DNA of 64,000 nucleotides from an uncultured Planctomycetia bacterium (lineage in GTDB: Bacteria > Omnitrophota > Gorgyraeia > Gorgyraeales > Gorgyraeaceae), in contig CAZMID010000003.1 in the NCBI GenBank assembly GCA_964566255.1, positions 5,145-69,144 of the forward strand. The letters are read 5' to 3'. The notes under the pieces were generated by a model. The model did no database searches and was not told the DNA's origin. It was given only the letters and a program-made list of their open reading frames with translations. Each line of letters opens with the position of its first letter. Within the stretch, counting starts at the first letter, position 1. Of this stretch, positions 4,246-63,600 are shown in pieces. The translations under genes and the position numbers were made by a program.

Positions 4246-4389
4246 TGATACTTATTAAATCCTTCGCCTTTCTAGAATCAGATATATTATTAGAATAAAC
4301 TAGAAGTATAAAGACCAATCCTATAATAAGAAAGGTAAGAATTGCATACCTTTCAGATTTTGAAAAATATAACATAGAATATGCCTAGA

Positions 4390-25400: not shown

Positions 25401-25614
25401 CTGCCTCCTCTATAGGCCTTGTGACAAGGGTCTCTACTTCCTGTGGTGGCATACCACCTCTTACGGCTACGATTATACTTATATCTCCATACGCTACGTT
25501 AGGTTTTAATTCAACAGGTAATCTCGTTAAAGACACGCTTCCCACAAGCAATATCCCAAGAAACAACATAAATATCGTAACAGGCCTTTTAACTGAAAAT
25601 TCAGATAGGTTCAT
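22441..25614 (-). CDS. RND efflux transporter permease (AcrB/Mdt family)
   Basis: 1057 aa. It has a 12-transmembrane RND architecture with two large periplasmic loops. The N-terminus …RPVTIFMLFLGILLVG… is typical. Confidence 0.9.
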   Translation of the reverse strand: MNLSEFSVKRPVTIFMLFLGILLVGSVSLTRLPVELKPNVAYGDISIIVAVRGGMPPQEVETLVTRPIEEAVSTVSYLENIYSTSKAGESRIWLEFEPGTNMEFAALEVREKFSKIRDKLPKEIQKPIIAQYKETDLPILLLAITGKGYTPEQLRKVVDEGIKESILRVEGVANVDVYGGRERKILVEIDKNKLYQYHIPMEHVVNSLGANNLNLLAGDIERRKNKFLIRIMGEFKSLDDIKNIGVTTTPHGSIIKLKEIAKVRDSFLEPTNYARTDIEPVVSIYIQKESTANTIQVVSNIEEEIARLKKTLDKNIFIKATLNQANAIKDAINAVKKSLFYGAILAVMVLLLFLRDPRVTSIIAVTIPISVMATFILMYFYKISINVMTLSGLALGIGMLVDNSIVVLDNIDKKKKGIDFSESSWRPKFTQAVVSGSSEVGLAIFASTITTIIVFLPFVFVNKATRMLWSGLGLTVTYALVSSLFVALMLVPMISDRIKSPTSRIKPKKSMFKKDLFLNIKKYYRYFLNMALKWRYVFLGVAIVILVFMLFLGSKIDSEFMAGTEEGRFTIFIELEPGAKLDVTDDMVKEIEILLSDISEIKTFTSRVEPWSSKLYVKLMPLSHRRRTTKSVIDDIRARAQVVEQKYKGGFIYFSEIEEKGLKEIVLDLYGYDYEILKELAVSIATRLGIMEGFEDIRMSRISGRPEWGITVDKERAAMFGLTAKDIAETLHSEIRGLRATLYHTESREIETVSRLRKEDRDRLDDLRKLTLFSKDGNPILLEQVANFTPQIGSSEIVRKNKMRVVHISSLVTQDSLVKAVKKIRMSLSDMEFPRDYYYRIGGNYERNLENEKELWAFPTGVLWITIFLVYLVLASLFESYTQPFIIMISVPLAVIGVIFALKITGKPISRGVIIGAIMLAGIVVNNAIVLVDRINFLRRKTKVGEQSPSNMIKSIITSSQDRLRPIVMTTSTTILGLMPMAFDRSESANLWSPLAITVIGGMASSTIFTLFLVPSIYLIFEDLKDVKNIILKQKQLLVVVKNKIYGIIKLTRKNYG

Positions 25615-36325: not shown

Positions 36326-37543
36326 CTATTTCCTCCAGAGCTTTTTTAATATAAAATATGCCTTTTTAGGCTTACGCTCATCAAGTCCGGTTTCCTGCTT
36401 ATTCAATGAACATACTCCCCACCATTCTTCATTTATATTAAGATTCTGAGGTGCCTTTATATCAAAATAATATGCCCCATTAGACCAGCTTGCAAGCGTA
36501 TCATGGATATACCATCCAGATTTACTATCTTCATTAAACTTCCACCATTCGTCTGTCCACTCAAATACAAAACCGCCTAAAGAGTTTCCAACGCCAGAAC
36601 CCATAAAAGTATTCTTATTTATTTCCTTCCATTCAGCCTCAATAAATTCTGCCTGCATAGCTTCATCTTCCTCATTCAGAAAGGCATTATACCTATCGCA
36701 TCCGAATTCAGTTATAACTACAGGTCTTCTGAATTTTCTTGATATCTCGCGAAAAAAGCTTCCAAAGGCCTTACCTCTATATATAGAACATCCAAGAACA
36801 TCAATATCTGGTGTAACAGGACCTGCTATATCTATATCAGTAACCTCTGCATTCGCCAATACAACAGGATGATTTGGGTCTATTTTATGGATCTCTTTTG
36901 CAACTTCATTTACAAAAGAATAATAGATCTTTGCCCTGGCCTGTCTTTTTGAATAAGGGTCTCCAAGGGCTTCTATCTCAGGAGTTGTCCATAGATTCAA
37001 TGTCTGAGGACCATAAGAAAAAGAAACATTATTTTCATTTCCAAGTATCCAGAATAAAATCCCTTTTTCATCTTTATAGGTCCGGACCATCTCCAGGACA
37101 TCTTCTTTTACATTTTCACAAAAATATGGATCTGCGTAATTTGGATTATCCCAAAAACCAAGCCAGTGACCCATGGCAGTCCGAATTTTAAACTTATTAT
37201 AAAGATATTTTATCGCCTCTTTGGTCTTTAAAGTGCTTTCTCCAGGCTGATAGACCCTTATCGTGTTTACACCTATAGCCTTCATTAGGCGACCGTCATA
37301 AATATAGGGCTTAAGAGGATCACCCCAAAAATCGTATGTATGATTCTTGCCTACAGGTACAGGGTTATAAACCATACCCTTTACTATATAGGGCCTATTA
37401 TTAACTATCAGCTGAAAACGCTTACCTTTTAATGTTTTTATATAAGAACGTTTCATTCCGACATTGTTCAGAATGAAAAATCCAACTAACAGTATTAAGA
37501 TAGTACAGGACACTCCTATAAGTATCTTTTTTGACACCTTCAT
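36326..37543 (-). CDS. clan GH-A (TIM-barrel) retaining glycoside hydrolase, family unassigned
   Basis: 405 aa with an N-terminal anchor. The acid/base motif is …FWILGNENN…. The nucleophile motif is …VVITEFGCD…. Both are shared with the 767-aa paralog. Confidence 0.55.
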   Translation of the reverse strand: MKVSKKILIGVSCTILILLVGFFILNNVGMKRSYIKTLKGKRFQLIVNNRPYIVKGMVYNPVPVGKNHTYDFWGDPLKPYIYDGRLMKAIGVNTIRVYQPGESTLKTKEAIKYLYNKFKIRTAMGHWLGFWDNPNYADPYFCENVKEDVLEMVRTYKDEKGILFWILGNENNVSFSYGPQTLNLWTTPEIEALGDPYSKRQARAKIYYSFVNEVAKEIHKIDPNHPVVLANAEVTDIDIAGPVTPDIDVLGCSIYRGKAFGSFFREISRKFRRPVVITEFGCDRYNAFLNEEDEAMQAEFIEAEWKEINKNTFMGSGVGNSLGGFVFEWTDEWWKFNEDSKSGWYIHDTLASWSNGAYYFDIKAPQNLNINEEWWGVCSLNKQETGLDERKPKKAYFILKKLWRK

Positions 37544-38372: not shown

Positions 38373-40676
38373 CTATTCTTCCCACATCTCTCGATAAATA
38401 AAATATGCCTTTTTAAGCTGTCTCAAAAAAGGACTATTCTCTCCATTCCCCTGACCGACTATTCCAAGCCACTCCTCATAATTCCATCCATCTGGAAACG
38501 GACCTGACCAGTTCTTTGTTGCATCATGCACGAATGGCTCATACGCCTTCCACCACTCATCTATCCATTCAAATAAGACTGAGCCTATTGAATTCCCTAT
38601 TCCACCATGGCGCGCTGAATTATACACAACGTCTTCCCAGTTTCCTTTTAGATATTCAGCCTGTTTATCTTCTGCAAATTTTCTTGATCTACCATCCATA
38701 TAGTTAGGACATCCGTACTCTGTAATGATAACAGGCTTATCGCAGATCTTTTTCACGTTGTCCCAGAAGGACCTACCAAAACCATATTTCCCTCTATATG
38801 CATTTGCACCGTATATATCTACATCCTTACAATATTCACCGAATGTATCTAAATAAAATAAATCGCCGTTACATAAAGACACTGGATGGTCTCTATCTAT
38901 GGACTTTACCATCTTTGCGACCTCATTTACGAACTTATAATACGAACTAGGATTCTTCTTTGCATTATTCGCAACACCATAGTTATTTTCATTTCCGAGC
39001 ATCCAGAATAATATATATGGTTCATCTTTAAATTCCTCGACCATCTTTTTTACGCTATCCATCATGTTTTTTCTATGTATAGGATTCTCATAGTCTGTAC
39101 CTTCGTACCAGCTTGCCCCAGACCCTACAGTATAGGCACCCAATAAATCTCCCATAATCACCATAATCCCATACCTATTATATAGGTCTCTGAGGAGTTC
39201 TTTATTTGATGCGTGATGATAGATTCTGATAGTATTACAATGCATCTGTTTTAACAATTCAAAATCGCCTATAGCAATCTCGTCTGGATCTTGTAGATTA
39301 TTAAAATTTTTATCAACCCAGCTGTCATAAGGGGCATCTATCTTTCCATTATTATTATAATCTGCCTGCATCCAATCATCTAAGGTGCCCTCATCAGGGC
39401 TCTGGCCAACTCTATTTGGTGCATAGGCAACGCCTTTTATCATATAAGGTCTACCTTCTACTCTTAACTGCCAATGGCCGTTTTTGTATTTTACAAGATC
39501 TACTTTTCCATCTCCTATTTGCTCTACTACTCTACCTGTCTTTATAACTCCCTTTTTAAATAAAGTCCTTTTTATGTTATCAAAAAAAACCACATTTATT
39601 AATTTTCCTGGATTTATAAAAAATTTATCATTTCTGATATCATTATCAAAACCGTTTTCAACAAATATATTGGCCCCGCGTAACTCCATTTCCAGATCAG
39701 GATTTTTCCTCAACAAATACTCTATTCTATCAATAGAAACTTGTGCAATATACCATGGCGTATGAAAATAAGTCCAGCCAACTGTCTTAGGAAAGTGCAC
39801 CACTATAGCATAATATGCCTTTATTGCATGCTTTAATAGGCCTGATCTCTCAAGGGCCAAGGCAGTGTAAAATAATCTTACTCCCATTGGTTCTGGCGCC
39901 TGTGTCCACTTATAAAAATTTGCCTCCAGGTCATCTGTATTTACAAAATCCCAGTGATTTCCTATTAGCCTTCCTTCTTTTTTAACTATCTGATAACGTG
40001 GATCCCATCTGGCCCCGGTCGTATTTGGATAAATACCCTCTCCAATTGCCTCAGCCAGACCTTCCGGATCCTCTACTACGTATTTATAATCATTAGTGTC
40101 AACATCTTTAAAATATCCATATTTTTTATAATCTACGATATCTTCTTTACCTGGATTATAAAGTGTAATTTTTGTCTTTAATCTTTTCATCTTTGGACCA
40201 TTTTTTCTTAAGTCTCTTTTCTCTTCTTCGAGTTTTTTAAGTGTTGCATGGCTCTTTTCTTTTACGCTCCAGAACCATCCACGTGGATCCCAATTTTGAG
40301 AATAGCTATAATCTTTTATAACCTTAAGAAAGCTCTCTTTTGCTTCTTTTATTCTCCCCTGAGAAAGATATGCCTCCCCTTGTATAAAAAAGCTTGTTCC
40401 AACAGCATTGAGTGCCTCATACTGATCCATTACCTCTGTAGAAGGCAAGGCACGTAAAAAAGATTGTTCTTTCTTTGCCTTTTCAGAATATAACTCTATA
40501 CACTTACCTGTATAATAAAAAGTCTTTTCATAATCTTTCGCACTCCATGATTCCCATGCCCGCACTATAAATTCCTTAGGAGAAAGTATCTCCTCTGAAG
40601 ATGCTGTAGTATCCAACACCCAAAGACCCAACAATAAAAGACAAATAATTGTAAAAGTAATTTTCTTATTTTTCAT
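38373..40676 (-). CDS. clan GH-A (TIM-barrel) retaining glycoside hydrolase, long paralog
   Basis: 767 aa with a signal peptide and an N-terminal TPR-like region. The catalytic core has …FWMLGNENNYG… and …VIITEYGCPNY…. It can be aligned with the 405-aa protein. Confidence 0.55.
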   Translation of the reverse strand: MKNKKITFTIICLLLLGLWVLDTTASSEEILSPKEFIVRAWESWSAKDYEKTFYYTGKCIELYSEKAKKEQSFLRALPSTEVMDQYEALNAVGTSFFIQGEAYLSQGRIKEAKESFLKVIKDYSYSQNWDPRGWFWSVKEKSHATLKKLEEEKRDLRKNGPKMKRLKTKITLYNPGKEDIVDYKKYGYFKDVDTNDYKYVVEDPEGLAEAIGEGIYPNTTGARWDPRYQIVKKEGRLIGNHWDFVNTDDLEANFYKWTQAPEPMGVRLFYTALALERSGLLKHAIKAYYAIVVHFPKTVGWTYFHTPWYIAQVSIDRIEYLLRKNPDLEMELRGANIFVENGFDNDIRNDKFFINPGKLINVVFFDNIKRTLFKKGVIKTGRVVEQIGDGKVDLVKYKNGHWQLRVEGRPYMIKGVAYAPNRVGQSPDEGTLDDWMQADYNNNGKIDAPYDSWVDKNFNNLQDPDEIAIGDFELLKQMHCNTIRIYHHASNKELLRDLYNRYGIMVIMGDLLGAYTVGSGASWYEGTDYENPIHRKNMMDSVKKMVEEFKDEPYILFWMLGNENNYGVANNAKKNPSSYYKFVNEVAKMVKSIDRDHPVSLCNGDLFYLDTFGEYCKDVDIYGANAYRGKYGFGRSFWDNVKKICDKPVIITEYGCPNYMDGRSRKFAEDKQAEYLKGNWEDVVYNSARHGGIGNSIGSVLFEWIDEWWKAYEPFVHDATKNWSGPFPDGWNYEEWLGIVGQGNGENSPFLRQLKKAYFIYREMWEE

Positions 40677-45677: not shown

Positions 45678-48600
45678 TTATAAACTAGCTCCTATTGTCC
45701 TAGGTTGTCTCTTAAATGTCATATTACCTGTGTCACTATAAATAGGCACATTCATCCTTTCTTCATGCAAGTCTTCAGCATCATATTCAGTTTCTGTCAA
45801 AAGATCTATTGGCAATTTAATTGTAATCTTTACATCACTATCACTACTATTAAAATTTGGCTTTCCAATGAAATCTTTCTTAAGTGCTGTAGCTCTTGAA
45901 GATAGTATTGATATAAAAGAAGATATTGCATTATTGGGTCTATTTAATCCTATTATAGAAGTAGTGATTGTAATAATGTCTTCCTTGCGTTCCGTACTTA
46001 TAGATAAAATTCCTTTTTCATTGACAATATTAGCAATGCCTTTTAAAAACATACAAATATCTTCAGATATATCAATATTATCTACATCTATTAAACCCAC
46101 TTTTTCATCTAGTGTTGTTTTTACTGTAAGCTGCGGATATAAGCTTTTTAAACCCTGCAATTCCAGTAGAAGGTCTCGATTTATACCGCTTTCTTTTTTC
46201 ATGAGTTCTCCTATATCTAGACCTTTCGCCATAGGTCTAATAGTCTTAGAAGGACCATATAATCTCTCTAAAACACCCTGAATATGTGCGGCAAAACTAT
46301 TTCCATTATTAAAGCTAGGATCTGTGTCATCTAAAACTTCTGAGAACGCTTCTGCCAACATCTGATCACGTAAATCATCTTCAAATCCATCATTATCTAC
46401 ATAGTCATCTTGACCATTATTTGAATCTTCAATCTTATACAGACTATCATCTACCATTCTATCAAAAAGAAAACTATCATTCCCATACTCAATATCTTTA
46501 AGTCCTATTGTCAGCAACAAATCTAGCTTAAATCCTCCTGCATTAATTATGGATGTTACGACTAAACGTTCTGCCTCAAAAAGAATCTGTGCTGGCGTAC
46601 CTTGGATATGGCTTTCGGTATATTTTGATAGTCTTAATCCAAGACTGTTAGATAGACGCTTTCTTTTGTTAGATGGTATATGATATTTGTACTTTTCTAT
46701 TAACTTTTCTATGACTGTCTTGTAATCCCTTGAGACGGCCAAGAATGTAAGAGATACATTGCCTGATTCAAGACATCTCTCTTGTATTAAACGAGCTATC
46801 TTTTTATGTAATTCATCATTACTGTTTAGCAATTTTCTTAAACCGACTATTTTATGTGGTCTGAATTTCGAATTATCCTCGGTCAAAAGTACTATCTTGG
46901 CATTGGGATTTCCATCTTGCCAATCTTTAAGACGCATTACAACCCAGGGAATGCCATTTTTTGTCCACAATACAACTCTTTCCCTTTTGAATATTTTGAC
47001 ATAATAGTGCTTTTTCTTAAAAGACTTGACATAACGTATGTAACCACTCTTTTTTAGAGGTTCACTGTATTCTATACGTATATTTCCTTTCGTAATCTTC
47101 TTGATTTCAGAAAATTCCGGCATAACCTCATTATAGGTAAACACTATTTTGCCTTCATCGTTGTAAATCCGATTGTATTCATACATCTTACAATAGCCTC
47201 TTCTTTTAATATAATCATCAAGCTTGGCGTATTTAAGAAGATAAAATTTTTCTTCAATATTTCCATCTTTTTCTTCGTTTACCTTTACAAACCATGCCAC
47301 TGTCTCTGTTCCTGGTGAAAAATCCTCATCTACTATATAATCGTCGTTAAAAAAGAATATCGCTCTCCTGTTATCTCCAACTTTCAACCCTCTAACTCTG
47401 ATTATACTCCTATTAGTAAGCTTTTTAAATTTTGAACTAATTTTTCCGCGAGCCTGGGTAGAAAAACTACCTATAAATTCATCTTTATCCTCAAGTTCTA
47501 CATCTACAGTTACAAACTCATCCTTTTTGGCTTCTGGATTTAATATTGAAGAAATACCAAAGGCCCCTGTCACATAGTTATCTTTGCCCTTGCGCCACAA
47601 TATTAAATTATCCTTTTTAAAGGAAGACACATATGCTTTTATATAGAAAAAATTGCCACCTTCATCTGTGGTGCCTCCTATTACTATATAAGTATCAGTT
47701 AATTCTATTTTTCTGTTCTTATGTGGAAATGTCTCATGTAGATCTCCTGCTTCATTAAAAATTTCTTCATATACTTTCTTTCCTCTTCCATCTATATCTG
47801 AAACAAATCTTATTACATCTCGCACATTCTTAGTCTTTCCTTCTCCAATTTTAATCCTTTGTATTAAAATACGCGTTTTTTCGCCAGGAGTACGAACTAT
47901 CCAACTAGTATCTCCATTTAACGAAAATTTCATCTTACGGCCTCCTGGTATTTTTCGACCCTCAACAAGTACCAAACCATGCTCCTCTAATAAGCTATCT
48001 AAAAATTCGTAAAAATCATTATTATTTATAGAACCTTCCCATTTATCCAAAAACTTCCCTGTCCTATAATCTACAAAGGCAATATTGTCTTCCTCAACGA
48101 TCTTTTTTCTTTTCTCGATATCTTTTTGGTCGGGTTCATCTAAAAAGCTTCCTTGTGGAATATCTGAAATCTCTATATCTAGTTCTGAAGATAACGTTAA
48201 AAGCGCTTGTCTTGCCTCTTCTGCTACCTCCAAGTTAACTCCTTCCATAAGCTTCTTTAAATGAGGAATAAATCTTCTGTCTTTTAGCTCAGTTACTTTT
48301 TGAATCAATTTTTCCATGGCTTTAGTAATTAGCGGATTTAAGCTGTTTATTAGGAACTTAAATTCATTGATTCTAGCTATGTACTTCTCTATTTCATCAG
48401 TTCCAGAAACATCTGGTTTTCTAATTACTGTTTTGCCTACAAATGCTGTCTGCGGTAATGCTGAACTATTAAACTCTTCTGAAATATTACTAGCTCCAAA
48501 TATAAAATAGCTTCTACTTTCTACCTCATTACGGATGTGTTTTGGTATTGAGTCCAATATTTCTTTTTCTCTTTTTTCCTTCCTTGCCTTATTTAGTGCT

Positions 48601-51600
48601 ATAGCCCAATGTACAATTGCCTTATTAAGATTTTTTTCATCAATACCGCTTTTCGTATAATAAATACTACCAAGTTTATAATATGCATCTACAGCATTAG
48701 ATTTTGATTTTATAGCCTCTTCTAGTGCTCCAATTGCCTTAGAGAAACTCTTTAACTCTTTGCAATCTATTGCATAATATGCACAGCCAAGATTATACCA
48801 AGCTTCTCCATATTTTTTATTGAGATTGGTTACTCGTTCAAGAATCCTAGCTGCCTCTTCAAATCTACATTTCTCTAAATAGACTCTTCCTATATTATTA
48901 AGTAACATCGGCATATACCCGTTCTTACTAGATTCATAATAATATCCTGCAACTCTTTCCTGCGTAATCTCAAAAACTTTCTCTTTATCTATTCCAGCTA
49001 GGTTCAAAAGCATATAAAATAGCTGAGCATTGGCAGCTAATAAAAGGTCTTTTTCTACTTTTTGCTTTTTAGTTTCATCGGATAGGCCCACACTTTGTAA
49101 TAACTCAAATATATCTTCATCCTTATCTATCAATGCATTTACCAAATGCCTTATAACAGGTTTTGGCTGGCCATTAGATAAATAATCATTTTCTTGTATT
49201 GATAACCAAAGATCATTAGGAAACTTTCTTAATAGATCATAATCACTTGCTCCTGAACTTTTTACTAAACTATAAAAATCTATATCTTTATCTTTGAATA
49301 ACTCTTCTACAATTAGCTCTGCCTTACCCTCAGAACAACCTAGATATTTTCTGAAAAAATCTTTCATGTATTCCTTCTGTTGATCTTCAGATTTATAAAC
49401 TACAGATTGATGGCTGAATGGATTTATTTTATATATTATTGAACTACAAGAAATAGATAGTAACAATAGAAAACTAATCATCATAGAAAAGATAGGATTT
49501 AAACCACCAATCCCTGCATATATAACATCAGGGAGATTATTTATAGGACTGGCTGCCTGAAACCACTGAAGGATAAATTGTATAGCTTCAGGAGATTTAA
49601 AACCTATAATTAAACCTACTATTATTAGTGGAATAATGGAACTTCTTAGTATCACTGAATTAGAAATAGTGGATTGCTTGAGAGATTTAGACCTTGATGT
49701 ATCAGCTTTATACGGCCTCTCAGGCGCTCCCATTAATTTTCTTAATTTCAAAAGTGCTTTTTCTTTAATTTGTCCTATCTTGTCTACTTCAAGCTCAAGG
49801 TCTAAGGCAATATCCTCCAAAGGCCTCTCTTGGATAATCGAATAGATAAGAATCTCCCTTTCTAATGGTGATAACTGCAATAACGCTGACTCTAATTTTT
49901 CCTCTCTATCTATCTTATCCAATAACTGGTCTTCCAGTTCTAATGAATCTGGATCAGTAATAAAGTTTTCAAGGCTCTCTGAATCTGAGTCAGATTCACG
50001 ATATTTAAAATTGCTTAAATAGACTGGATGTTCCTGACTCAATAATCCTATTACATATTCTCTAACTGTCTGAGGCCTAACTCCCATATATTCAGCTAAT
50101 CTTTCGATGTCTTTTTCAAATATTTCTGCCACACTATATATTTTTAAACTATTCATAGCCCTCTTTAGCTTCTTTATCTTACCCTGCATATGCGGTGGGA
50201 GCGGCATTGGTTTTTTAAGGCGGATATACTCTAAACATGCTGTTCTAATAAAATGTGGGGTATATGAGCTAAACCTCCCATATTGACTATAACGCAATCT
50301 GGTCTTTTGGGCTGCATCATATAAGGCAACTACCCCTGCATTTACCATATCTTTGAAGTCATGTTTATAATTTAAATAGGGACTACCATACCATTTTATA
50401 TATTGCTTAGCTATAATATTCGCTATATATAAATGACTTTCTATAAGTATGCGATTTGCTTCTTTTCCTAAATTCTCTGCCCTTTCATCATCTGACTTGA
50501 GATTGGCGTTTAATATCAAAATAATAAGCGCTTCCTCTTCCTCGATGCTTAATTTATGGTTATCTTCGTAATGCCAAATCTCTCCTATACCTTTTTTCTT
50601 ATAATCCTCAAATATAACCTCTGCCTTATCTACCTGCTGTCTTGTCGGGCCATAATGAACCAATATATACCTTTCTGGATCTCTTGCCTCAAAAATTCCC
50701 TTAAAACCCCTCCTATTAACATCAGGGTATTCTTTTAATAAAGCCTGTATTGCTTCATACGAAAATCCGCGCAATAGGCCTTTCCTCACTAACTGTGATC
50801 TAAATCCCAATAAATTATAAAGCTTGTTAATCTCTTCTTCTAAGGATGTAGCTAAACTATCAAAATCAAAACTGTCTTCAAAATCTTCATAGTCATCATC
50901 TAGAAGCAGCCTAGATTGGGTCTCAGTCAAGATATTATTTCTTGCCATCCTTTTAATTTTAGGATTACGTTCCTTTTCTTTCCAGGTAAATAAAAGATTA
51001 ACAAAATCATCAATAAAGCGTTCTGACGTAAAACCATCTAGGTTATATAATGTCTTTTTCAGCCGTTCATTTAAACATGCCTTAAGGGACTGCTTAATCC
51101 CTTTTGTTAAGACCTTTTTCCTCTTGGCCAATTTTGCCAATAACATAGTTTCGTACCTATAAGTAACATTTTTATTCCAAATGTTCGTAAAATCATCCTT
51201 CAGTGCCTGTAGGCTTTTTCTAGAATCTAGTATTATCCCTGAGGCCTCTTGCACTTTTAGATCATGATATATCGGCCTATACCCAAATTGACTTTCTGAA
51301 TCAAGAGTGCAAAGGACTGCTTTCTGGATCCAGTATTTTGTGTTTTTAGCAAATTGATCTAACTTCATTGAAAATCTAAAGCTTTTCAATTCTTCCAACT
51401 CTTCCAATAAAGCCTTTATTTCTTCTAATGTCATTGCGCTATCAATAGAATCCCTAAAAGAATCTATCTGTTCTCTAAACTCACTAACTTCTATCTCTTT
51501 TCTCATAAGTAAACCCTGATACGCTTCTGCTATTTCTTTTATTTTTTTATTTATTTCTACCTCATCCAGATTAGATTCAATAAATAAATGGAAGGTAATT

Positions 51601-54600
51601 ACTGGTGGCAATCCTTTTATTCTAGCTAATTTTAATAAGTCTTGTATCTTTTTCTCTATGCTATTCCCATTATATCTGATTAAATCACAGATTATATACT
51701 TTGGAAGGTTGTACTTAGTAGCTAAATCACTAATATTGTCGCTTAATGCTTCAAAATCTCCTATTTCAAAACCATCTTTTATAAGAACAGTGATCAGTGA
51801 AATAGGTAATTTATATGTAGCGCTAATCCTCTTTGAATTATATGAAATCTTTTTAAGGACTCTCTCAAAATCTGCATATTTCTTAATTACATGAATCAAA
51901 GTAGATCTTGAAACTCCGTATTTCTCCATAAGCTCCTTAAATGCAGTAAATGTGAATCCTTTGAGAAGAAGCATGTGTACATGATTTTCTATAAATGGTT
52001 TAACAGTCTCATCACCTTGTTTAAACTCCTCGATTGCCTTTTTAACCCCTGCACCAAACCCTTCTATATCAAAAAACTTCTCTACCTTATAAAGCGTGTA
52101 GTTCCCAGGATTCCTTAGAATCTTCCAGCTATTGGCACTTAACAGATAATTTTCCATGAAGTTCTTCTTTAAAAACTCTTCTCTTTCTCTTGTAATCTTC
52201 TTATTTGTCAATTTTCCAATTAAGTCTTTAGCTACTTTCTTCTCAATCCCAATATTAATTAAAGAATCTACTAAAAACTGTGAGTTTTCTAATCTCCTCT
52301 TTTTAGATAACGCATGCTTAGCCAGATACCTCTCCATATGATCGGTTTTACATGCCTTAAATATCAATGATTTTGTAGCGTTGTATTTCTCCTTCAAACC
52401 TAAATAAGACTCATAAGTTAAGCCTCTATAAAGCATCCAGCTATAGTACAACTCTGTAAATGCATTATCCTTAAATATCTTTCTTTCCTCTTTTAATCTA
52501 GATACGAATCTTGTCATGCCTTCCTCTCTCCAATGGCCAGAAACTATTTTCTTTACATCTGATCTAGTCAGAAATCTGTTTCTAGTAAAATTCTTTAGTG
52601 ACTCGAGGTGTAATTCTGAACTCTGGTAAAAATTAAATATACTATTAGTGATTTTCTTGGAGAAATCCATACTAAAACTATTTTCTAATAAAAGCTCTCT
52701 GAGTTCTTCCTTTAAAACGGCATTTGGTATAGGAGGCATTTCTATTAATGGTTTTATCAGTTGTTTCTTTTTTTCTTTTATTAATCGTGGTTTACTAATT
52801 CTACTATCTTCAGCTTCTATCTGGCGCTTGACTTTAATCTTCCCAGTATCTTTTGTAGAAACCTCTAAGCTAATAATCTTAGCATCTTTTAAGAATTTAA
52901 TAGTTTTAGGCAAGCCATTTTTAAATTCAACTTCCACCCACTCATTTGCATAGTTTGAAAATTTCGTCCAATAGATACCTATTTCTAGTTCACCTGCACC
53001 TCCCAACTGATGTAAAATAATATTATCCTTTAATTCTAAAAGTCTCTTTTGAGGGAATTTCTCAAATGAATCTATGATATTTCTTTTAGTATCCAGGATT
53101 AAACTTAAGTCTTTAGCTAGAAATATCTTTCCTTCCTTAATAAGTCTAGCCTTTACCACGATTCCATTAATGACATAAGCCTTTACGTCATCATGCTTCG
53201 GAAATTTACTAAAGTTAGCCCAATTCCTTCCTCCAAGATGTAGGTTCCCGTCTCCATCAAGGTGATGATGTTTTATTACTGCTTTCCTCAGGCCAGCCAA
53301 TCTTTCTTTTTTCATCCCTATAAAAGAATCTACTTCTTTCCTCTTATTTAAATCTACTAAGATAGAAAACTTTCTAATAATACCATCCTTTATAAACTTC
53401 ACTTCTCTTGGTAATCCTTTTCTAACTATAAATTCTACTTCTTCATTTTGATAGAGAGAAAATCTTGCCCAACGCTTGCCGCCAATATGTAATTCACCAC
53501 CATCACGCAGATAAAATCTTTTAATCGTTACATCCTCTAATTTGCTAAACTTAGACCTTCCGTAGCTATCGTAGAATGTTTCAATTAACTGACCGGTCTT
53601 ATTATTCCAAATTTGAGAAAATTCAACCACTAAGTCATCCTCTAAGAATTTAACCTTATCAACAAAGTCTCCCATCATAGTAACTTCAACTAAGGCATTT
53701 GCTCTTTTGCTAAATCTAGCCCGTTTCGTACCATCTATCCACAACCCCCCAGTTTTACCAAGTTGCATTCTTATAACTCTCTCTTTCTTAATCTTTATTA
53801 TTGGTCGCTGAAACAATGGAAGAACTGTTGCACTGTTATATATAGGTTCTATAACTTTTGAAAACATTTCACCTTTTTGTGAAAGAAAATCCCTAGCAGG
53901 GACATTTGAAAGATGTCTCCTCTTTTTTAACTTCACTGATTGGAATGTTTGTTTATTTGGTAGAATAAGTGGGACGGCCCCTCCGACAGGTTCAGATGAA
54001 GACAAGGTTTCATCTCTCTCGCGTCCCACCCACTTGACAATAAGTAAAGTAGTCAAAATTAAAGCAATAGTTATTCCCAATGGCCCCAAGAGAGGAGATG
54101 CAATAAGTACACCGGCCTTTCCAACAGCTGCAAATAAAGTACCTGGCAAAAAGATAGCAGCTAATATACTCGCAGCAATACTAAGCTTTCTGAAACTCCC
54201 TGTAGTTACTAAACTAAGCTTTTCTTTTTGCTGCTGGTTAGGCCTATCCTGGTCTTTATCTATTCTCTGGCCATGAAACTCTGAATCTCTCTTTATATCC
54301 TGGCTACCCTTAACATTCTCAGTTCCACTCCTGACAGCTTCAAGTTTTTCTTTGGCTTTTCCAAGGCGCACCGTGTAATAAAACCTCTTTCCCTCTTCAA
54401 AGACAATATTATCTACAGCCTTTTCTGCTCTCTTAAGAGCCTCCTCGGCTTTATTTAAATCAAGGTCTTCTGTTTTCTCAATATATTGAAGGGCCTTTTC
54501 TAAAATGCCAATCTGTCCATTAGTATATCCATTAGCAGCTGCGCGTAAAGATTCATAAGATTTCCTAAATCCTACGACCCTATCGTCATATTCCAAAAGG

Positions 54601-57600
54601 CCTCCTATAACATTTTCTTCAACAGCCATAGCTAATCTATGTGCCTCTCGCAGGATTTTCACATCTAAATTCTTGATATCTTTCAAAGCGATACTTGCTT
54701 TTTCAATGGCCTTCTTGGCCTTATTGATATACGTAGCCCTAAAAACAATCTGGTCTAATTCAGCAATCCTATCATGAACATATATTGAATCCTGTTCTGA
54801 GCGAGCACGAGCTATGTACCAAGATAGATCAAGTCCTCTCCTGACAGCATCCAACTGGCCATCATTAATATTGTCAAATTTGCAAAGCTTGTAGGTCTCT
54901 TTAACAATCTCTTCAAAGTATTTCCTTAGAGGTACTTTTTCTAGAAAAGATGCCTTGTCCAACTCTGTAGAATGTTTGACCACCACCCTATCTATGTAGT
55001 CCTCATAGTTAGACATTATTATCTTTACATATCTCTGAGTCTCTCGGAACGGAGGAATATTATTGCCATACTCTTCAATTCTATGAGGACCTGCATTATA
55101 TCCTCCTACTGCCAATCTAATGCTTTCGAATCTTTCTAACAACATTGCAAAGTAATGAGTCCCTCCTCTCGTATTCTTATATGGGACATAAACATCCCCA
55201 TCTGTCCAATTCACTCCTAAATCTTCTCTTATATCTTTCCATGTATCTGTAGAAGGATTATCCGGCGTTGACCTGATCTGCATAGCTCCTTTTGCATCTT
55301 TATGGCTAGTGGCCATAACCCTAACACTACCCTTAATATAACTTTCTTGAAGAATCATAAACCATGTAAATGCTGTAAATTTTTCAAGGCTGCCAAAATG
55401 TCTCTTCAATGTAGAATAAGTCCTCTCATCATCCCATGTATCCTCTACTCCTCTTCTTATTTCATTCTCAAAACTATAATCCTCTAGCCTTGTCCCTGAA
55501 TTAGCGCCATAAGCAACATTGCTAGCCACAAAACCTTCATTTGTAAAATGAGGTGATAGAGGTACAAATACCAAGAAGCCTACGAATAATACACTCATTA
55601 ACTTCTTCAGAGAAATCCTACTACCAATCCTTCTCCTATTCTCAGGCCTTATAGAAATAGAAAATAGAGAGCTATTCCCTTGCTTGAAGCTATTCCTTAT
55701 AAATATACTGCCTATTGCAAGTAAACCTAAAGCAATTAGTCCAGGTAGCCCAAAGTGTGTAAATATGATTGTAAGAATACCTATTGACAGAATTCCAGAA
55801 ACAGCAACCTTTTCAGTCTTCTCAGATTTTATAGCACTAGATATCTTATCTACTAAAGGAACATGATATCTTGCCATTATTTCTTCTATAGGGGTGTTTC
55901 TAGAAAGTGTTTTTTCTTCAAGTTCCTGCGGTGTTAAAGAGCCATGAAGCTCTACTTCTTTAACCTTTTCTATTTTGTTAAATTGAGCACGTTTATTTTC
56001 GCCTTGATCTAATGGGCTATACCAGGCCTTTGAACCTGAATGGACTGAGATTTGCTCTATATTCTTTAATGTAGCCTTGGACACTGGAAAATCAGATATA
56101 GGTATTTCAACCATACCATTTTCAGGTATAGTATATTTTTTAGGACTCCGACCAATATCAGCTGCACCCATTGCCTTATCTTTTAATAGCCTTACAAATA
56201 TATTTGTTCCAGATTGATTTCTTGGGAAGGTTATGCGTAAAGACTTTGCATCTGACAAATCAAATAGACCATCTACCCAGCAGGAATAAGCATCTCCACC
56301 AGGCCAACTTCCACTTATTCCCCAGGCAATCGCTTCTACATCTATCTTTAACTTAATTTCTTTTTTGGGTTTTGGTGCAGTCTTCTCTTCCTGAATCGGA
56401 AATTTAATTACCTTTCTGGTTTTTGGCTTTACAATATTTTCTGCTGCTTTTTCTGTAACTCTAATAAGTCCTGGGATTTCTCTGGCGCCTAATGAAAATG
56501 GATTAAATCCTAATTCTACTAATCCCATCCATGCTGTAGACGCAGTACTTAATACGCCTCCTGCAGCAAACCAGCCATGTCCAGTAGGAGCCCTTCTATT
56601 AGCATAAGGGTAAGCTATTTCTTCTCCGATCTGAACAGCCATTGTCTTCATATGGGCATACATTGTAACAGCGTCTTTTTCACATTCTTCCGCCCAATCT
56701 GGATGAGATTTTGAATAATAATCAGCTAAAATAGCACATGCCTCTATAGCACCTGCTGTCCACTCAACACTCTTTATACCATTATCTCCTCTATCAGTAA
56801 AATCAACTGCTATAATATTACCATTATCATCAAATATTCCAGCAAGCTCTTTTGATTCTTTCCATAATCTGTATGAGGTACCATCACCAAACCATTTATC
56901 TATTATATCTGCACCTAATACATCTATTGCCCAGGTCTGACAGTCTGTTGCAAAAATAGGATTAACTATCCATTCCCCCTTATCTTCATCATAGTGCATA
57001 CCTTGATTAAATACGCCTCTTTCAGAATCAAAACTTAGTTTAAGATATCCTGCTACATTATCCATTGCTTTCTTATAAGTAGTCTTTCCTGTAATTTCAT
57101 AAAGCATCCTGAATGCGGCATACCATGATAGATTATTCTCTGTTGAAATCTCATCATACATCCATTTATATCTAAATGGATTTTTACCAGGTTCTTGTGG
57201 AGACCATGTACCTTTAGGAGCCATACGTATACCACCATTTTCAGCTTGCAGGAAAATAGCTGCCCTTGCAGTCTCTTCTGCAAGTTGCATCTCTATAGCA
57301 TCTGGTAAATATTCTTTTCCATTCTCCTTAAAATAAATCTGTAATGGCCCTAAGACTCCTGCCCATGCATTCTCACCTGCTACTGGCTGCCACTGGCTCC
57401 ATTCAACTGTATTTCCTGCAAGAGGGTCTTTTAACTTCCAATGACCAAAGGCATTGATAATCTTAAACCTAAAACCCCTCTCGCCCTTCCAATAAGAAAT
57501 CTTACTTCTACCTTTATCACTATAAACAAATGGTGATTTTGATGCATGTAATTCACGAAGGTCTCCCAATGTGCCCCTCCACATAACATCAACCAATAAT

Positions 57601-60600
57601 TTTGCTGGTCTTAAGTCCCCTGTAAGGGCCTGGAATATTTGCGCAACACCTCCGTCATATATTACAAGTCCTTCTTTTAGAACCGTTCTTTCGTGTACAT
57701 TCTCAGATTCTTCCCAAATCGATTCCAGCCTATCTCCTGGTACCTGAAAGCTTAAGATAACCTTTGTATTATCTGCAACATTATTTTCAAGCCAGTTACC
57801 AATGCCTTTAATGGTTTTTTCTGATGCGATTGAAGTAGAAACTCCCATTAAAAACACTATAACTACAGAAGCAGTAAGCGAGGCGACCTCTCCGAAGGTA
57901 GGACTTGACAAGGTCAGACCATTTTTGCGCCCCGCCTGCTCGTTTCCTGAAAACGTTTTCTTTTTTGGTGAAACAAAAAGCACTTCAGTTGAATTTAAAT
58001 CTTCCCTCTCTAATTTTACAGAGTTAAATGTTGATCTATTTCTAATTACACGATTTAATATTGATTTTATTGGGGATATATATGCCTTTATTTCGCTTGG
58101 TTTCTTGTCATGTGCTATATCTTCAAGGTGAGCTTGTTCATGGGTTAGAAGTTTTTTCTGGAACCACTTAGGTATTAACTTCATTAAATCTTTATTTACA
58201 TAAAGTGTTCCATCTGGGGAAACATAGGATGGGTCTTTTGATGTAGAATCATCTTTACTAGATGCAAATTCTTCTATAAGACCAAAGTCTGGGCCTCGTA
58301 TTACACCTCTCTTAACAAAATAATGAATTATATTTACAAAAGCTATAAGACTGGTCTGTAATAAGTAGAATGTAACAGCGATAAGGCCTGGCAAAGATAA
58401 TAGTGCTATACCAATTGTAGCTACTATCGGTATATCTGAAGATGCACCATAGGCAATAAATGAAGGAGCAAAAAATGTTATTAAGCCTGCAAAAAATGAT
58501 GTTAAAGAACCTATTAAAGAAACAGAGGATTTTTCTTTACCTAACTTACCGACAACATTTTGATTTATTGTTTCTTTAATCTCTCCAGTATTCAAATCTT
58601 TTATTAAAAGAGGGCTGTAATCATCTGCATTAGAAAAATATACAAAATTAAGCTCATCAAGTTCAAACTCTCCTTTTGCTATATCTTGACATTCTTCCAA
58701 TATTTCAAGAAATCTTTCATAGTCTTCTGGTTCTTTATGTATATATCCTATAGAAATATGTCCTAGAAAGTTTCTTCTTGATGTGCTAGTATGCTTATTT
58801 ATAGCTTGATTTAAATCTAAAACTCTATTTAATTCTTCGGGCTCTGAAAATCTTACAAGTACGGAAATAGTCCTCTTTAACCCAATCTCACCTATTAAAA
58901 CTTTTATCTTCCCTGGGGTACCTATATCTTCAAAAGAATTTCTTAATTGTTCTAACCTTTCCTCATATTGTTCCCTGGTAACACCAGTTTTTGCACAATC
59001 ATATTTCTCACTTGGGTCTACATCGCATATTGTCATATGAAAAGTCTCGGGCCTAAGAAACTTAACACTATCCCCTAATCCTTTTCTCTTTAATTCATCT
59101 TGTAAATCAATTAATAGCCTAGACAACTTATTTTCTTGCCCTACAGGAGCAACACATGTAAAACCAGAGAAGGCCAGTAAATTTCCATGCTTATCAATTT
59201 TCTCTCCTCTACCGAAATGTGCTACACTATCAAAAGGTTTGCCCTTATATTTAGTAATAGTTCTGCCTTTCAATCTACTGTTATAAGTCTCGAATTTATT
59301 AATACCTCTTTCAACCCTGCCAAGTTCAAGTGCAACTTCCTTCACACTACGATCTTTTACCTTTAGGGTCTTAAATAAATTGCGCAGCATCTCTTTATTC
59401 TTCTCATCGATTTTTACTTTCAACATTACTCTGAATTCAATATCGCTCATTGCCTTATTTAGTGAATCACCGATATAATGTCCAAACCCCTTAGATAAAT
59501 CAATAGCTATAGTTAAATAACCGCTCTTTTTAAAATCCTCTACTATAGCCTTCAATCCTATTAACATAGACCTTAAAAACTCACTCTTCTCTTTTCCAAT
59601 CAAATTATCAATAGCATCTATATCGATTCCATTGGATATTAAATATTCATAGAATAACTTATATTTATCACCTTCATAATAAAGCTGCATGGCTGCTAAT
59701 CGTTTTGCGGCTTCCATGTCATCCGGATTGGCCATATATTCATCTTTTAAATATGCCAATTGTAATAGGTCTTCATACTCTCTCTCTGTAAAGTGGCCAT
59801 ATTCCTTAAGAAGCAATGCCTTTAATATAGTTATATAACTTTCATTATCCTGGTTATTAAACACTCCTCTTAAGAATACAGGGTGTATTTGCAATATCCT
59901 CCTTTTAATCTTTCCATTCTTTCTGTTTAAAATGAACCTTATAGCCATTATAGGATCGCCAGGCTCATCTGAAAAAACCACATCTTCCAGCATATCCTCA
60001 ACACCTATCTCTTTTGCCTTGCTATGCAAAAATTCTATCTCACTAGCAGTAGGTCTAATCTGGGTCTCAGCTATTCCAGCTATACAGTGAGAAACCTTAC
60101 TAAGGTAATTCTCTATCCTTCTATTTAACTCATTTGGATTATTTATGACTGGGATTAACTGTCCTTCTATGAAATCTCTGAAATAATAACCTGATTTAAA
60201 AGCAGGGTTTACTTCTTTTAAATATCCTGCTACTTGTCGTTGTTTATTGAGATTTATTAATAATTGATGGAGCTTGAGGTCCTGTAGGATAAGGTCATGC
60301 TCTTCTTGTCTTTCTTCTTGTTCTGTGCCAACTGTATTATTATGGCCTAATTCATGGAAAAGCCTTTCAGCAAGGATTATTCTTGTAGCTTCAGGATAAA
60401 TATTATTAGAAGCCAATAATGCTCTTATAAATTCCTCTCCTAAGATTATTTCAACCTGTTCTGTCTTAGAATTATAATATCTTACTGTATTTATTGGGAG
60501 CTTTGAATTTACTCTTATTACAATAGGAGGGGCTCTATTATCCTGACTGTTTAAAAGATCCTGTAAATATATGCTCAATTTAGTATCATTTTTTACTAGA

Positions 60601-63600
60601 TTTTCTATTAAATCAAGCGAATCATTTAAAAACGCTGCCAAATCTCCTGCCTCACTGCCTGTAGGAGTAAATCTCTGGCCTTTAGCCTGAGATAAATCAA
60701 GCCTTGCCTCTAATGAATCTACAAAATTACCTTCCAGATCAGAATACTTTACAGTATGGTCTGTGGGGGCAAAGGTTTTTACAGTGCTTTCTCTTAATAA
60801 TATAGTCTTAAGGTTATTCCATATAAACCCTTTTATGAGATTCTCCCAGAATAAATCTGCAATTATAAAGTAAGGTATTGCAACTAAGAAATGAATCAAT
60901 GCTTTTATAATTGAGATATTTAAGATAGGGAGACTGGTTACCAAGTCAACATAATCTACGAATGCCTTTTTCTTGCCTTCTAAGATCTTTAACCTTGCCT
61001 TAAAAGGCTTTAGGCCATATCTAAAGGAATCCTTCACAGAAAAACCATTATGCATGAATGGGCCTAGTATCAATGCAAATGGAAACACATAGAAGAAAAA
61101 CTGTGCTATTACACCCCAAGGATGCATAGGTGCAACTAAGAATATATTTAACAATAAAACTCCCCATTTAATAGATTCGCGGAATTTACCATATAGGGAG
61201 GCAAATGACTCAGTTGAATATTTAACATCCTTTGCACCTCCTATAAAAACTCCGCTATTACCGCCAAGAGCATCTATTGTCTTCTGAGCATCATTTGGAA
61301 CAAGCGACAAGAATGTTAATACCAGACTCCAAAACCTCATTAGGTATAGGCCATAACCCTTCAAAAATCCATATTCTTTTACAAGTTTTCTTACGCCTCC
61401 TGCTGCTATTGCCTGTGCAAATACATATTGCATAGATATAAATAATAAAGGAATAGACAGATATGCAAAAGGTGTAAAGGATACAAAGAATGCAAACGAG
61501 TAAATCATGAGGTTATAGCGTGGTATAATCACCTGATTTATATAATGGTCATCATTTGCAAGCAATGTGAATTTTTCTGCCCAGTGCATAATCTTACTTT
61601 TCAAAAGCTGCTGGAAGTGAATACTTATATTGTTATCAATTATTAATCCTCCGAACCTATTTACAAAAGATGGCATACCGCCTTGCGTCTTTTCCCTGCC
61701 TCTGCCCATTGTTATACCAGGCGCATAATCTGCCTTATAACCTGCCTTTAATATCTCTTGAGCAGTCATAGAGTCTTCTATCTTACTTGCAGGAACGCCA
61801 AAATCCCTCATTGCTGAGAGGCGCACAATGCCTGGACCATACATGGCTGGAGTGCCAGTCCTTGTCTCAGAAGGAATTAAGCGGGTATTGAATACATCTT
61901 CTGCTATCTCCTGGTCTTTCGCAGTAGGTGTCATACCTTGGTCAGCATCCCTGAGGTCAGTACCCACTATACCTAAATCAGGTCGTTGGGTGAAATCCCA
62001 TGCAACAAAAGGAAGCATGAATACATCAACTGGGAATATAGTATGTTCCCAGTCAGTATTGAATATGACTGCGTCTTTTTCGCCTGCTAAATGCCTCAAG
62101 GCATGTGTCCAGTTATCAACTTTATATCCCCAGCCAGAATGAAATTCAGAATCAGGAGGCACACCAAATCCAGCTATTGTTGCAAGGTGTCTTTCAGGGC
62201 AACCTTCTCCAGCTCCTTCCCCTTCTTTTACCCAGCTGCCTTCCTGCCACCCGAGTTCTTTTAAGTCTTCCATCATAACTGGGCCATTAACCTTACCAGC
62301 AAGCTCAACTTGATAACTAAACATACCCTGATAATATTCAAGTATCTCTTCATCTGTCGGATTACGGTCAAGTTCCATTACATGTTTTAAGAATATCCTG
62401 TATGCTACAAGGGATGATTCGTGAGCAGTCCTTACTGTCTTCTCCACGTTATCAACCCTAAACAATACCCACTGATGGATAATCTGGCGTGAAAGCATGA
62501 TTTCAATAAGGAGTTTTCTTAATACTTCGTCATCTTGTATGCTTGAGAAATCTCCTGCTCCAAAATCCGTATTGTATTTCTCTGACAACATTGCACGATC
62601 TGGATTTGTAATATGCTTAAGTTCTATCTCGAGGTTTTGCAAAATTGTATCTCTGGACATTGCATTAAAATCATATCGTGCAGACATAGGATTATCTCCA
62701 TCATGTCCCAAAGGTAAAATACCATATTCCAACATCCCTTCTAATGTATCTTCAAAACTCATGTAAGGGTCGCTAAACTTTTTAATAAAGGCCTTTTTAG
62801 CATCTCCAGTTAAATTACCTAATCCTGCAAGATAATCAAGGTATGATAACCAATCACCTCTATATGCCTCTTTAATTATCCTGAAAGGTGTTTTTATGTC
62901 TCCACCGCCTTTTCCTTCTGGATGAGGAGTATCATCATCCAAAGAGATCCTTGTAACCACAGCAAACTGCTTCCAGCTAGTCACCTTGGTTATTACCCTT
63001 AAAAGCTGACCTGGGTTTGTTCGTATAAATTCCTTTATATCTTGAAATTCTTCTTTGCTATAAAGATTGACCTTATTAAAGAATTCTACGATCTTCTTTT
63101 TTGCACGAGGGTTCTGGATATCTGCAGCATCAGATAATGCTTTCCCCTTACCTAATGCCTCCCTAAGTCCTTGTGCCTCCTCTTCAGTAATCATGCGGTA
63201 TTTTAACAGCGTTTCATTTATTAGGATCTCATGATATACGTCAGTCAAGTAAGGATCATTCTTTATCTTTTCAATATCACTCTGTTTTATCTGGTTATAT
63301 GAATTTATATCCTTCCAGTGACCTTGTTTTTCAAGCGCATGTATTACTGCTTCTGATAACAGATGCCACCAGCTGCGTAACGATACCATAGCATTTAAAA
63401 AGAGGATTATAGAACCAATACCAAGCCCTATTAAAGGCAAGACCCCCCATGAATATAATACACATAATACTGTCAATACCGCAAATGTCCCGACCCATAA
63501 TGTGGCAAGTATTTTAAAGAACCTTACCTTCTCGCTTATCCTTTCCTGTGCTTGCGGGTCAGTTCTACCAATATATTCCTTGCTTGCTTCATAGATATCT

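Follow-up and report, generated by a model that had tools for sequence, protein, structure and literature searches.

The window analysed here, a 64,000-nucleotide stretch of contig CAZMID010000003.1 (GenBank assembly GCA_964566255.1) from an uncultured member of the Omnitrophota, encodes on its reverse strand a giant open reading frame (ORF) that carries a divergent sigma-70 module deep inside a polytopic protein. The program-listed form of this ORF spanned 45678-63860 (-) and comprised 6,060 amino acids (aa) from a TTG at 63860, from which all residue numbers are counted. Upstream of that TTG the frame was stop-free for 46 further codons (63861-64000, -), up to the window edge; the N-terminus therefore lies outside the window, and the protein has at least 6,106 aa and is possibly much longer than the 6,060 aa listed. 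A Pfam scan recognised 2H-phosphoesterase-like, SLT, sigma and TPR domains (Table 1), with the SLT catalytic motifs ES, GAMQI, and GYNAG all intact, and hydropathy gave 13 clear hydrophobic stretches as well as a marginal one of 19 residues (aa 4939-4957). Self-BLAST at E ≤ 1e-3 detected no internal repeats, which were visible by pattern and profile only. The ~84-residue repeats had no Pfam match, and Pfam hints of helix-turn-helix (HTH) families in aa 3805-4335 were weak and below cutoff.

Table 1. Features of the giant ORF, from its N-terminal to its C-terminal side.
Feature	Position (nt)	Strand	Residues (aa)	Remarks
Giant ORF	45678-64000	-		At least 6,106 codons; stop codon 45678-45680; frame open to the right window edge
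HExxH motif	60342-60356	-	1169	
2H-phosphoesterase-like stretch	59025-59198	-	1555-1612	Pfam 22.5 bits vs cutoff 21; HxT motif HMTICD
HExxH motif	58128-58142	-	1907	
SLT lytic transglycosylase domain	55062-55355	-	2836-2933	Pfam SLT 30.8 bits vs cutoff 21.3; domain also placed at aa 2849-2933
Upstream hydrophobic stretch	54021-54188	-	3225-3280	56 residues; could hold two membrane helices
Four ~84-residue repeats	52857-53759	-	3368-3668	G.L.IGG..W..FS.Y...VEV; start of the conserved unit
Helical region with helix-turn-helix-like units	50856-52448	-	3805-4335	Examples YRGLTYESY and KGFTFTAFKELMEKYGVSRSTL
Helical pre-sigma domain	50592-50855	-	4336-4423	Motif ..GFSY..YP....DPERYIL..GP; directly upstream of the sigma module
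Region 1.2-like helix and sigma2 (regions 2.1-2.4)	50193-50552	-	4437-4556	Ends at PLPPHM, the start of region 3.0
Sigma3 (regions 3.0-3.1) and region 3.2 finger/linker	49896-50192	-	4557-4655	Motif SLENFITDPD; from SigA/RpoD alignments
Sigma4 (regions 4.1-4.2, helix-turn-helix)	49725-49895	-	4656-4712	
Basic linker from sigma4 to the next membrane helix	49668-49724	-		~19 residues; 5 lysines and arginines in the last 20
Two hydrophobic stretches after sigma	49425-49667	-	4732-4764 and 4782-4812	Loop between them free of lysine and arginine
TPR repeats	48654-48911	-	4984-5069	Tail beyond the membrane hairpin

The initial annotation had described a complete sigma-70 module at 49725-50468 (-), embedded in a membrane protein of several thousand residues. 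On translation, these positions correspond to aa 4465-4712 of the giant ORF, with PLPPHM, LSPLEREIL and VDKIGQIKEKALLKLRKL all present, and the module lies internally and in frame within the polytopic protein, in an open frame of at least 6,106 codons. Its identity as a sigma-70-family module was upheld by profiles and predicted fold; its start had to be moved about 28 residues upstream, to aa 4437 (nt ~50552), where a region-1.2-like helix (LSIEEEEAL...) begins. By alignment, this helix is followed by regions 2.1-2.4, sigma3, the 3.2 finger, and regions 4.1 and 4.2. The PLPPHM motif stands at the position of IPVHM in RpoD, the finger reads SLENFITD versus HLGDFIED, and eight residues are inserted between regions 2.1 and 2.2.

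HMMER searches with sigma profiles, which had been named as a check on this identification, supported it with the superfamily model and with part of the Pfam models. A 361-residue segment around the module scored 57.6 bits against TIGR02937, the NCBIfam sigma-70 superfamily model (cutoff 42.9). In the Pfam scan the module passed Sigma70_r4 (25.0 versus 24.1 bits) and Sigma70_r4_2 (27.3 versus 25.7) just over their Pfam cutoffs, but Sigma70_r2 stayed under its own (14.4 versus 24) and the Pfam region-3 profile had no match in the module. Longer models aligned well: TIGR02997 was matched over profile positions 65-298 of 298 (E = 5.6e-17), and end-to-end alignments with the RpoD/SigA, FliA/WhiG, RpoH, and RpoS models had E-values from ~5e-11 down to 5.6e-17. 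The best single profile was PHROG 351, 'RNA polymerase sigma factor' (E = 1.3e-25). Additionally, a phmmer search against PDB sequences aligned regions 2.1-4.2 of the module with dozens of RpoD chains and, at E = 1.3e-6, with chain 7l7b_F of SigA.

Structure prediction, another check that had been proposed, bore the assignment out. An AlphaFold2 model of the module from a 14-sequence alignment had a mean predicted local distance difference test score (pLDDT) of 63.8; a second, covering aa 4280-4725 and built with the family alignment described below, reached 79.7, with most of sigma2 and sigma4 at 82-93, the sigma3 helices at 83-87, and a disordered 3.2 linker. With either model, the best 50 Foldseek matches listed from the PDB were all sigma factors, and the predicted sigma2 and sigma4 superposed on solved sigma domains at 1-2 Å. 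Predicted structure and alignments together place the helical folds of sigma2 and sigma4 in their usual order, with sigma3 and the 3.2 linker between them. The segment at aa ~4437-4712 is thus a real but very divergent module of the sigma-70 family.

With respect to class, the module is not a primary sigma (RpoD/SigA, group 1): it is without region 1.1 and its scores fall far under every equivalog cutoff (60.6 bits versus 354 for RpoD_Cterm, and 61.9 versus 384.5 for the cyanobacterial RpoD). Nor is it an extracytoplasmic function (ECF) sigma, given that regions 1.2 and 3 are present and that its position is internal (aa 4437-4712 of at least 6,106). Rather, group 3 sigmas, for example FliA/WhiG or SigB, have the same layout of regions 1.2, 2, 3 and 4. 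A search with an RpoD profile, filters off, found no second sigma gene in the window. A phage origin was considered, PHROG 351 being the top profile, yet tblastn against 50,697 phage records returned 12 matches to ordinary sigmas at 25-31% identity, and this origin was rejected.

The same arrangement recurs in other large proteins of the phylum. An exhaustive HMMER search with aa 4200-4830 against 1.84 billion representative proteins gave 671 matches at E ≤ 1e-3 and just nine at E ≤ 1e-10. The top matches were mostly not free sigmas; the region upstream of sigma was common to them, usually together with at least part of the sigma module. Specifically, MBN2831415.1 (P0005; 5,430 aa, named 'HEAT repeat domain-containing protein') matched query positions 93-506 at its residues 1984-2402, with sigma at ~2140-2402. 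Two others bear sigma names at NCBI, namely MDO8488725.1 (P0004; 3,365 aa, 'sigma factor, partial') and MBU0548737.1 (P0006; 1,407 aa, 'sigma-70 family RNA polymerase sigma factor, partial'), the latter being one of two overlapping pieces, with P0019, of a single gene. Shorter relatives were P0002, P0003, P0018, and P0027. Every named relative came from Candidatus Omnitrophota. Identity was 24-33% over the shared unit in the large relatives, and 24-32% over pre-sigma plus sigma in the three accessions just given.

The common order was that of ~84-residue beta-repeats, helical HTH-like units, the pre-sigma domain, and then the sigma module. The repeats occurred in many copies in P0005, P0006/P0019, and P0004. 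The pre-sigma domain, always directly upstream of sigma within the family, had a conserved motif (..GYSY..YP.L....DPERYLL..GPL..) in P0002-P0006, P0018, P0019, and P0027, and a profile that we built from it scored 94-124 bits in every relative that spanned the domain. Weaker copies lay further upstream in several relatives, and the window protein has diverged extra copies in the 50856-52448 region. AlphaFold2 predicted the pre-sigma fold with a pLDDT mostly above 90. This domain was also considered as a sigma region 1.1 or the RpoD non-conserved region, and rejected as such (hhalign probability 0.5%, no RpoD similarity).

The sigma part itself was less uniform. Region 3 was kept in P0005 and the window protein and was absent in P0004 and P0006, in which sigma matches were weak (21.1 bits for Pfam r2 and 16.9 for r4_2, both below cutoff, and E > 0.2 with our own RpoD profile). 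The pre-sigma-plus-sigma2 unit was also present at 9959-12400 of L004 (ENA contig ctg88529l), where a frameshift and in-frame stops followed just after region 2.2 and the neighbourhood was split into many same-strand ORFs. These breaks may reflect long-read sequencing error, the contig name suggesting a long-read assembly, or a decaying giant gene.

Other searches for relatives recovered little. A word-indexed protein search with the sigma segment returned one ordinary sigma only, a metagenome scan for close relatives a single weak sigma match, and a profile search with one alignment (A1) only P0027 and RpoDs; the family alignment proper (A2) was too divergent to scan loci with. A scan of a genome collection for close relatives yielded only an RpoD-like gene of 662 aa, located beside a 625-aa ORF that we take to be the primase gene. 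Within the giant gene, neither promoter-like sites (61 versus 70.8 ± 7.6 in shuffles) nor terminator-like sites (10 versus 9.7 ± 3.2) were enriched, and a separate internal transcription unit for sigma was rejected because such sites were no commoner than in the shuffles. Since the unit recurs in other large Omnitrophota proteins, the fusion is old and maintained; it is recurrent and phylum-specific, and an assembly artefact is very unlikely.

The hydrophobic clusters that the initial annotation had reported on either side of the module are real (aa 3225-3280 upstream; aa 4732-4764 and 4782-4812 downstream), and the module lies between them. The first downstream stretch begins 19 residues past the end of sigma4 (aa 4712) and probably forms a transmembrane hairpin with the second. 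We derived topology from hydropathy and from counts of flanking charges, with the number of helices being ambiguous in several long stretches. Five lysines and arginines separate sigma4 from the next helix and the following loop has none, so that, by the positive-inside rule, the sigma end should be cytoplasmic. The helix preceding SLT resembles a signal anchor, with a strongly basic N-terminal flank (RRRIGSRISLKK), and SLT should therefore be periplasmic.

Among the relatives, the membrane setting differed. In P0005, sigma fell within ~4,100 N-terminal residues free of any membrane-helix cluster, the only such cluster being at 4108-4522, and by eye these N-terminal residues also held motifs of the kind usual in cytoplasmic enzymes (HD-like, methyltransferase-like, and P-loop). 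P0006 had a 50-residue hydrophobic stretch (a hairpin) almost directly after sigma, followed by a very basic segment and a HExxH motif, and P0004 had almost no hydrophobic stretches.

The analysis shows what the module is and which fold it has, that it sits internally and in frame between hydrophobic segments, and that the unit recurs in Omnitrophota. From these findings we tentatively favour a cytoplasmic, membrane-tethered alternative sigma with access to RNA polymerase limited until proteolytic release, although we would put this at somewhat below an even chance; its release, location and polymerase binding are the parts that we infer. Under this reading, sigma would be synthesised within a giant polytopic protein of the inner membrane, as an internal stretch facing the cytoplasm, and membrane attachment on both sides would keep it from acting as a free sigma. 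The tethers would be the basic linker of ~20 residues to the next helix and, on the other side, ~1,150 residues of soluble domains running from the preceding membrane segment. Proteolysis of the giant protein would next free a soluble sigma, which would steer RNA polymerase to a promoter set specific to it, probably with little canonical -35 contact.

Several findings weigh against this scenario. No cleavage site was found, and the Pfam and NCBIfam scans revealed neither an adjoining protease domain nor an anti-sigma domain. In particular, a zinc-finger anti-sigma domain between sigma and the membrane helix had no Pfam or NCBIfam match, in a linker of just ~19 residues. The initial annotation had linked release to the HExxH motifs of the same protein, which may resemble DUF4157-type minimal zinc peptidases. 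Over 2,500 residues separate these motifs from sigma, and they gave no peptidase profile match; scanned as isolated segments at E ≤ 10, they returned one chance-level match to DUF4047 (E = 0.2) and no other Pfam family, and we rejected them as the releasing protease. The similar HExxH motif of P0006 had no Pfam match either. Proteolytic processing of giant Omnitrophota proteins has been suggested, though not demonstrated (10.1101/2023.11.21.568195).

Topology speaks against it as well. The upstream segment at aa 3225-3280, the only hydrophobic stretch between SLT and sigma, looks like two helices, and in that case SLT and sigma would share one side of the membrane, which cannot suit both if each works in its usual compartment. 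The Omnitrophota giant-gene study met the same kind of implausible localisation and called transmembrane predictions for such proteins unreliable (10.1101/2023.11.21.568195). Moreover, the theme common to the relatives is a cytoplasmic setting, not closeness to the membrane, and hydropathy of P0005 and P0004 indicates that the tether in the window protein may be incidental. Some relatives (P0002 and L004) also look truncated or broken after sigma2.

A further group of adverse findings concerns the divergence of the module, measured on 48 alignment columns in which the consensus residue was present in at least 75% of 142 free sigmas from the same search. The window module retained 23 of these, compared with a mean of 41.4 (sd 6.2; 5th percentile 29) for the free sigmas, and P0005 retained 15. 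Changed positions included N383, R385, Q406, E407 (Q406N, E407A), G411, W433, W434 (W433H, W434F), Q437, R451, R584, E585, R586, and R588 (R584V, E585D, R586K, R588G). The sigma4 helix that reads the -35 element had a net charge of 0 (141 free sigmas: +1.67 ± 0.91), and that of the entire HTH was -2 (free sigmas: +2.44 ± 1.78); by our own count on the family alignment, the same helix was at -2 to -6 in the relatives. Given this non-basic helix and the changes at R584 and R588, ordinary -35 recognition looks unlikely.

Other positions were unchanged (D403, G408, L412, A415, F427, Y430, I435, P453, L551, E555, L573, Q589, I590, A594, and L598). Among them are residues relevant to RNA polymerase in region 2.2 (D403, G408, L412, A415) and region 2.3 (F427, Y430, I435). 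Region 3.0 likewise kept P453 and the PVHM histidine, region 3.2 its finger motif L.(D/N)FI.D, and region 4 the motif L..LSP.E..IL (4.1) along with Q589, I590, A594, and L598 (4.2), and the core-binding motif QEG was retained in P0002, P0003, and P0005. Judging from these residues, the scaffold and several polymerase-contact features appear to survive, and ordinary -35 binding looks unlikely.

Elsewhere in the window, an AcrB-type RND efflux pump (25611-29264, -; 1,217 aa; ACR_tran E = 2.6e-238 over aa 5-1064) ended in a Pro/Lys/Glu-rich linker followed by a DeoR-like winged HTH at aa 1154-1197 (25.8 bits versus the Pfam cutoff of 21, and 30.9 bits when the tail was scanned alone). Because this pump carries a DeoR-like HTH, the tethering of DNA-binding modules to membrane proteins is not unique to the giant gene.

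The rival that survives best, although we consider it less probable than tethering with later release, is that sigma is never released and serves as a fixed docking site, by which the giant membrane protein would hold RNA polymerase, or a complex resembling the holoenzyme, for transcription there or for sequestration; the genes transcribed at the membrane might then include the giant gene itself. What is conserved among the relatives is the fused unit in large proteins and not membrane closeness, as would suit a module that functions while fused, and neither a protease nor a cleavage feature was found. The retained core-binding scaffold residues and 3.2 finger motif are also consistent with docking, as is the fusion of the window's RND pump to a DeoR-like HTH. 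Two membrane-bound transcription factors, ToxR and CadC, work without being released. On the other hand, promoter binding may be weak with a -35-reading helix that is not basic, and a tether at both ends, with ~20 residues to the membrane, would be sterically awkward in a holoenzyme; no sigma known to us functions with both of its ends tethered. The more specific proposition, that giant Omnitrophota membrane proteins bind RNA polymerase directly through a conserved unit whose working end is the fused sigma, which is never cut free, strikes us as doubtful. Were it true, a polymerase anchored at the membrane would couple transcription to the synthesis and insertion of the giant protein or to sensing of the outside, or would be kept in reserve, and, with a sigma acting from inside a polytopic protein, transcription would be organised in a manner not yet described in bacteria.

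The suggestion of the initial annotation that the module is degenerate and recruited finds some support in the 23 of 48 positions kept and in the replacement of R584 and R588. In its strong form, a degenerate sigma fold without a role in transcription, kept as a helical scaffold or protein-binding piece, would also fit the mere 15 positions of P0005, the acidic recognition helices of the relatives, the lack of region 3 and barely detectable sigma similarity of P0004 and P0006, and the frameshifts and stops right after sigma2 in L004. We nevertheless regard it as unlikely: the window copy still exceeds the curated superfamily cutoff, its fold is predicted with good confidence, and all four regions follow in order, including a 3.2 finger that has no known role outside the polymerase channel, while the breaks in L004 may be sequencing errors.

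Far less probable is that the sigma segment is extracytoplasmic and delivered into a bacterial host or prey cell to redirect the victim's RNA polymerase. The helix count does place sigma on the side of the SLT cell-wall hydrolase domain, and a predatory or episymbiotic life has been proposed for Omnitrophota, in which giant proteins act on the surfaces of target cells (10.1101/2023.11.21.568195; PMC10066038). However, the charges at the sigma4 end indicate, by the positive-inside rule, a cytoplasmic location, P0005 has its sigma, by eye, among motifs of cytoplasmic enzymes, no secretion or translocation domain was found adjacent to the module, and the authors of the giant-gene study call transmembrane predictions for these proteins unreliable. 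Finally, that an assembly or frameshift artefact joined a separate sigma gene to its neighbours is hardly credible: the organism is uncultured, its contigs metagenomic, and the window's own giant protein absent from the matches of both protein searches, but at least 6,106 codons stay open in AT-rich DNA (33-39% GC), independent Omnitrophota assemblies carry pre-sigma-plus-sigma inside proteins of 1,407-5,430 aa, and there was no sign of an internal transcription unit.

Among known systems, the membrane-tethered ECF sigmas are the nearest in mechanism. In Bacillus subtilis, pro-sigma-K and pro-sigma-E have a pro-sequence of ~20-30 residues, the precursor is not an integral polytopic protein, and pro-sigma-K provides a precedent for proteolysis. 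Closer in design to the window protein is IutY of Pseudomonas putida, an ECF243 sigma/anti-sigma hybrid that unites sigma and a membrane-spanning segment in one polypeptide, is held at the membrane, turns active upon release, and has been experimentally shown to be freed by Prc and RseP (PMC8999054). IutY differs in that its small ECF sigma (sigma2 and sigma4) is located at the N-terminus, ahead of an anti-sigma domain and one membrane helix, whereas the window sigma has regions 1.2 and 3, begins over 4,400 residues inside a giant protein, and has a tether on either side, with no anti-sigma or protease domain found. ECF52 (SCO4117), ECF48/53, ECF36, and ECF263 are likewise predicted membrane-tethered sigmas for which proteolytic release has been proposed (PMC5826349, PMC8999054, PMC7826278). 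Like the window protein, these fuse sigma to membrane helices, in their case with carbohydrate-binding or other sensor domains; unlike it, they are ECF-type and terminal, have extensions of hundreds rather than thousands of residues, and contain zinc-finger anti-sigma domains.

MzaA, from the MZA anti-phage system, is another larger protein (726 profile positions) with a sigma-70 module, in its case C-terminal. MzaA belongs to a defence system, and the window protein is not a member of its family (26.8 bits versus a cutoff of 800).

Omnitrophota giant membrane proteins have been described as having many helices and a mosaic of normally stand-alone domains that includes SLT, with processing into smaller polypeptides suggested (10.1101/2023.11.21.568195; 10.64898/2026.06.07.730766; PMC10066038). 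The published catalogues start at 10,000 aa or at ORFs of more than 20 kb (same sources). The window protein, which we group with these giants, comes from the same phylum and likewise has an SLT domain; truncated at the window edge, it measures at least 6,106 aa. The 6,060 residues scanned yielded no dockerin or C39 domain and no SecA-DEAD domain, the last being reported in most full-length giant genes. The fusion fits the habit of this phylum of joining ordinary domains into giant ORFs.

The main texts of three Omnitrophota giant-gene papers and a huge-protein survey, as well as one supplement, make no mention of sigma factors, and nothing relevant came from literature searches on sigma factors in Omnitrophota or in giant proteins. 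MDO8488725.1, MBU0548737.1, and MBN2831415.1 are true homologues of the pre-sigma-plus-sigma unit that have automatic annotation only and differ in their surrounding domains. What was known already, then, are membrane-tethered sigmas of the small, terminal ECF type and automatic 'sigma factor' labels on two large Omnitrophota proteins. The novelty claimed at the outset narrows accordingly to a sigma with regions 1.2-4 inside a polytopic giant protein, of which we found no description in the literature searched. Sigma factors are normally free subunits in the cytoplasm, and a fused internal sigma across the phylum widens the known ways of packaging sigma activity. As sigma meets RNA polymerase only in the cytoplasm, the module also constrains the membrane side of ~1,450 residues of the giant protein, and it makes the cutting of giant proteins into working pieces testable, since this would leave a free sigma-sized fragment.

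The remaining genes of the window were those of a diderm bacterial chromosome, including holA, lptE, bamD, comEC, leuS, accA, folE, mnmE, purH, and RND pumps. The nearest named relatives of its LeuRS were, with one exception, from Candidatus Omnitrophota (66-80% identity). An identical LeuRS was present on a 45-kb JGI contig, which runs in the opposite direction to the missing upstream sequence. Beside ABC sugar-transport genes, the ORFs at 36326-37543 (-) and 38373-40676 (-) had by-eye motifs in common (NTIRVY/NTIRIY, GNENN, ITE[FY]GC, and FEW.DEWWK), which suggests that they are related TIM-barrel glycoside hydrolases. At 12718-13866 (-), a hybrid protein combined a response-regulator receiver with subsequent HisKA and HATPase_c domains and was flanked by small ORFs, one of which had a HAMP domain.

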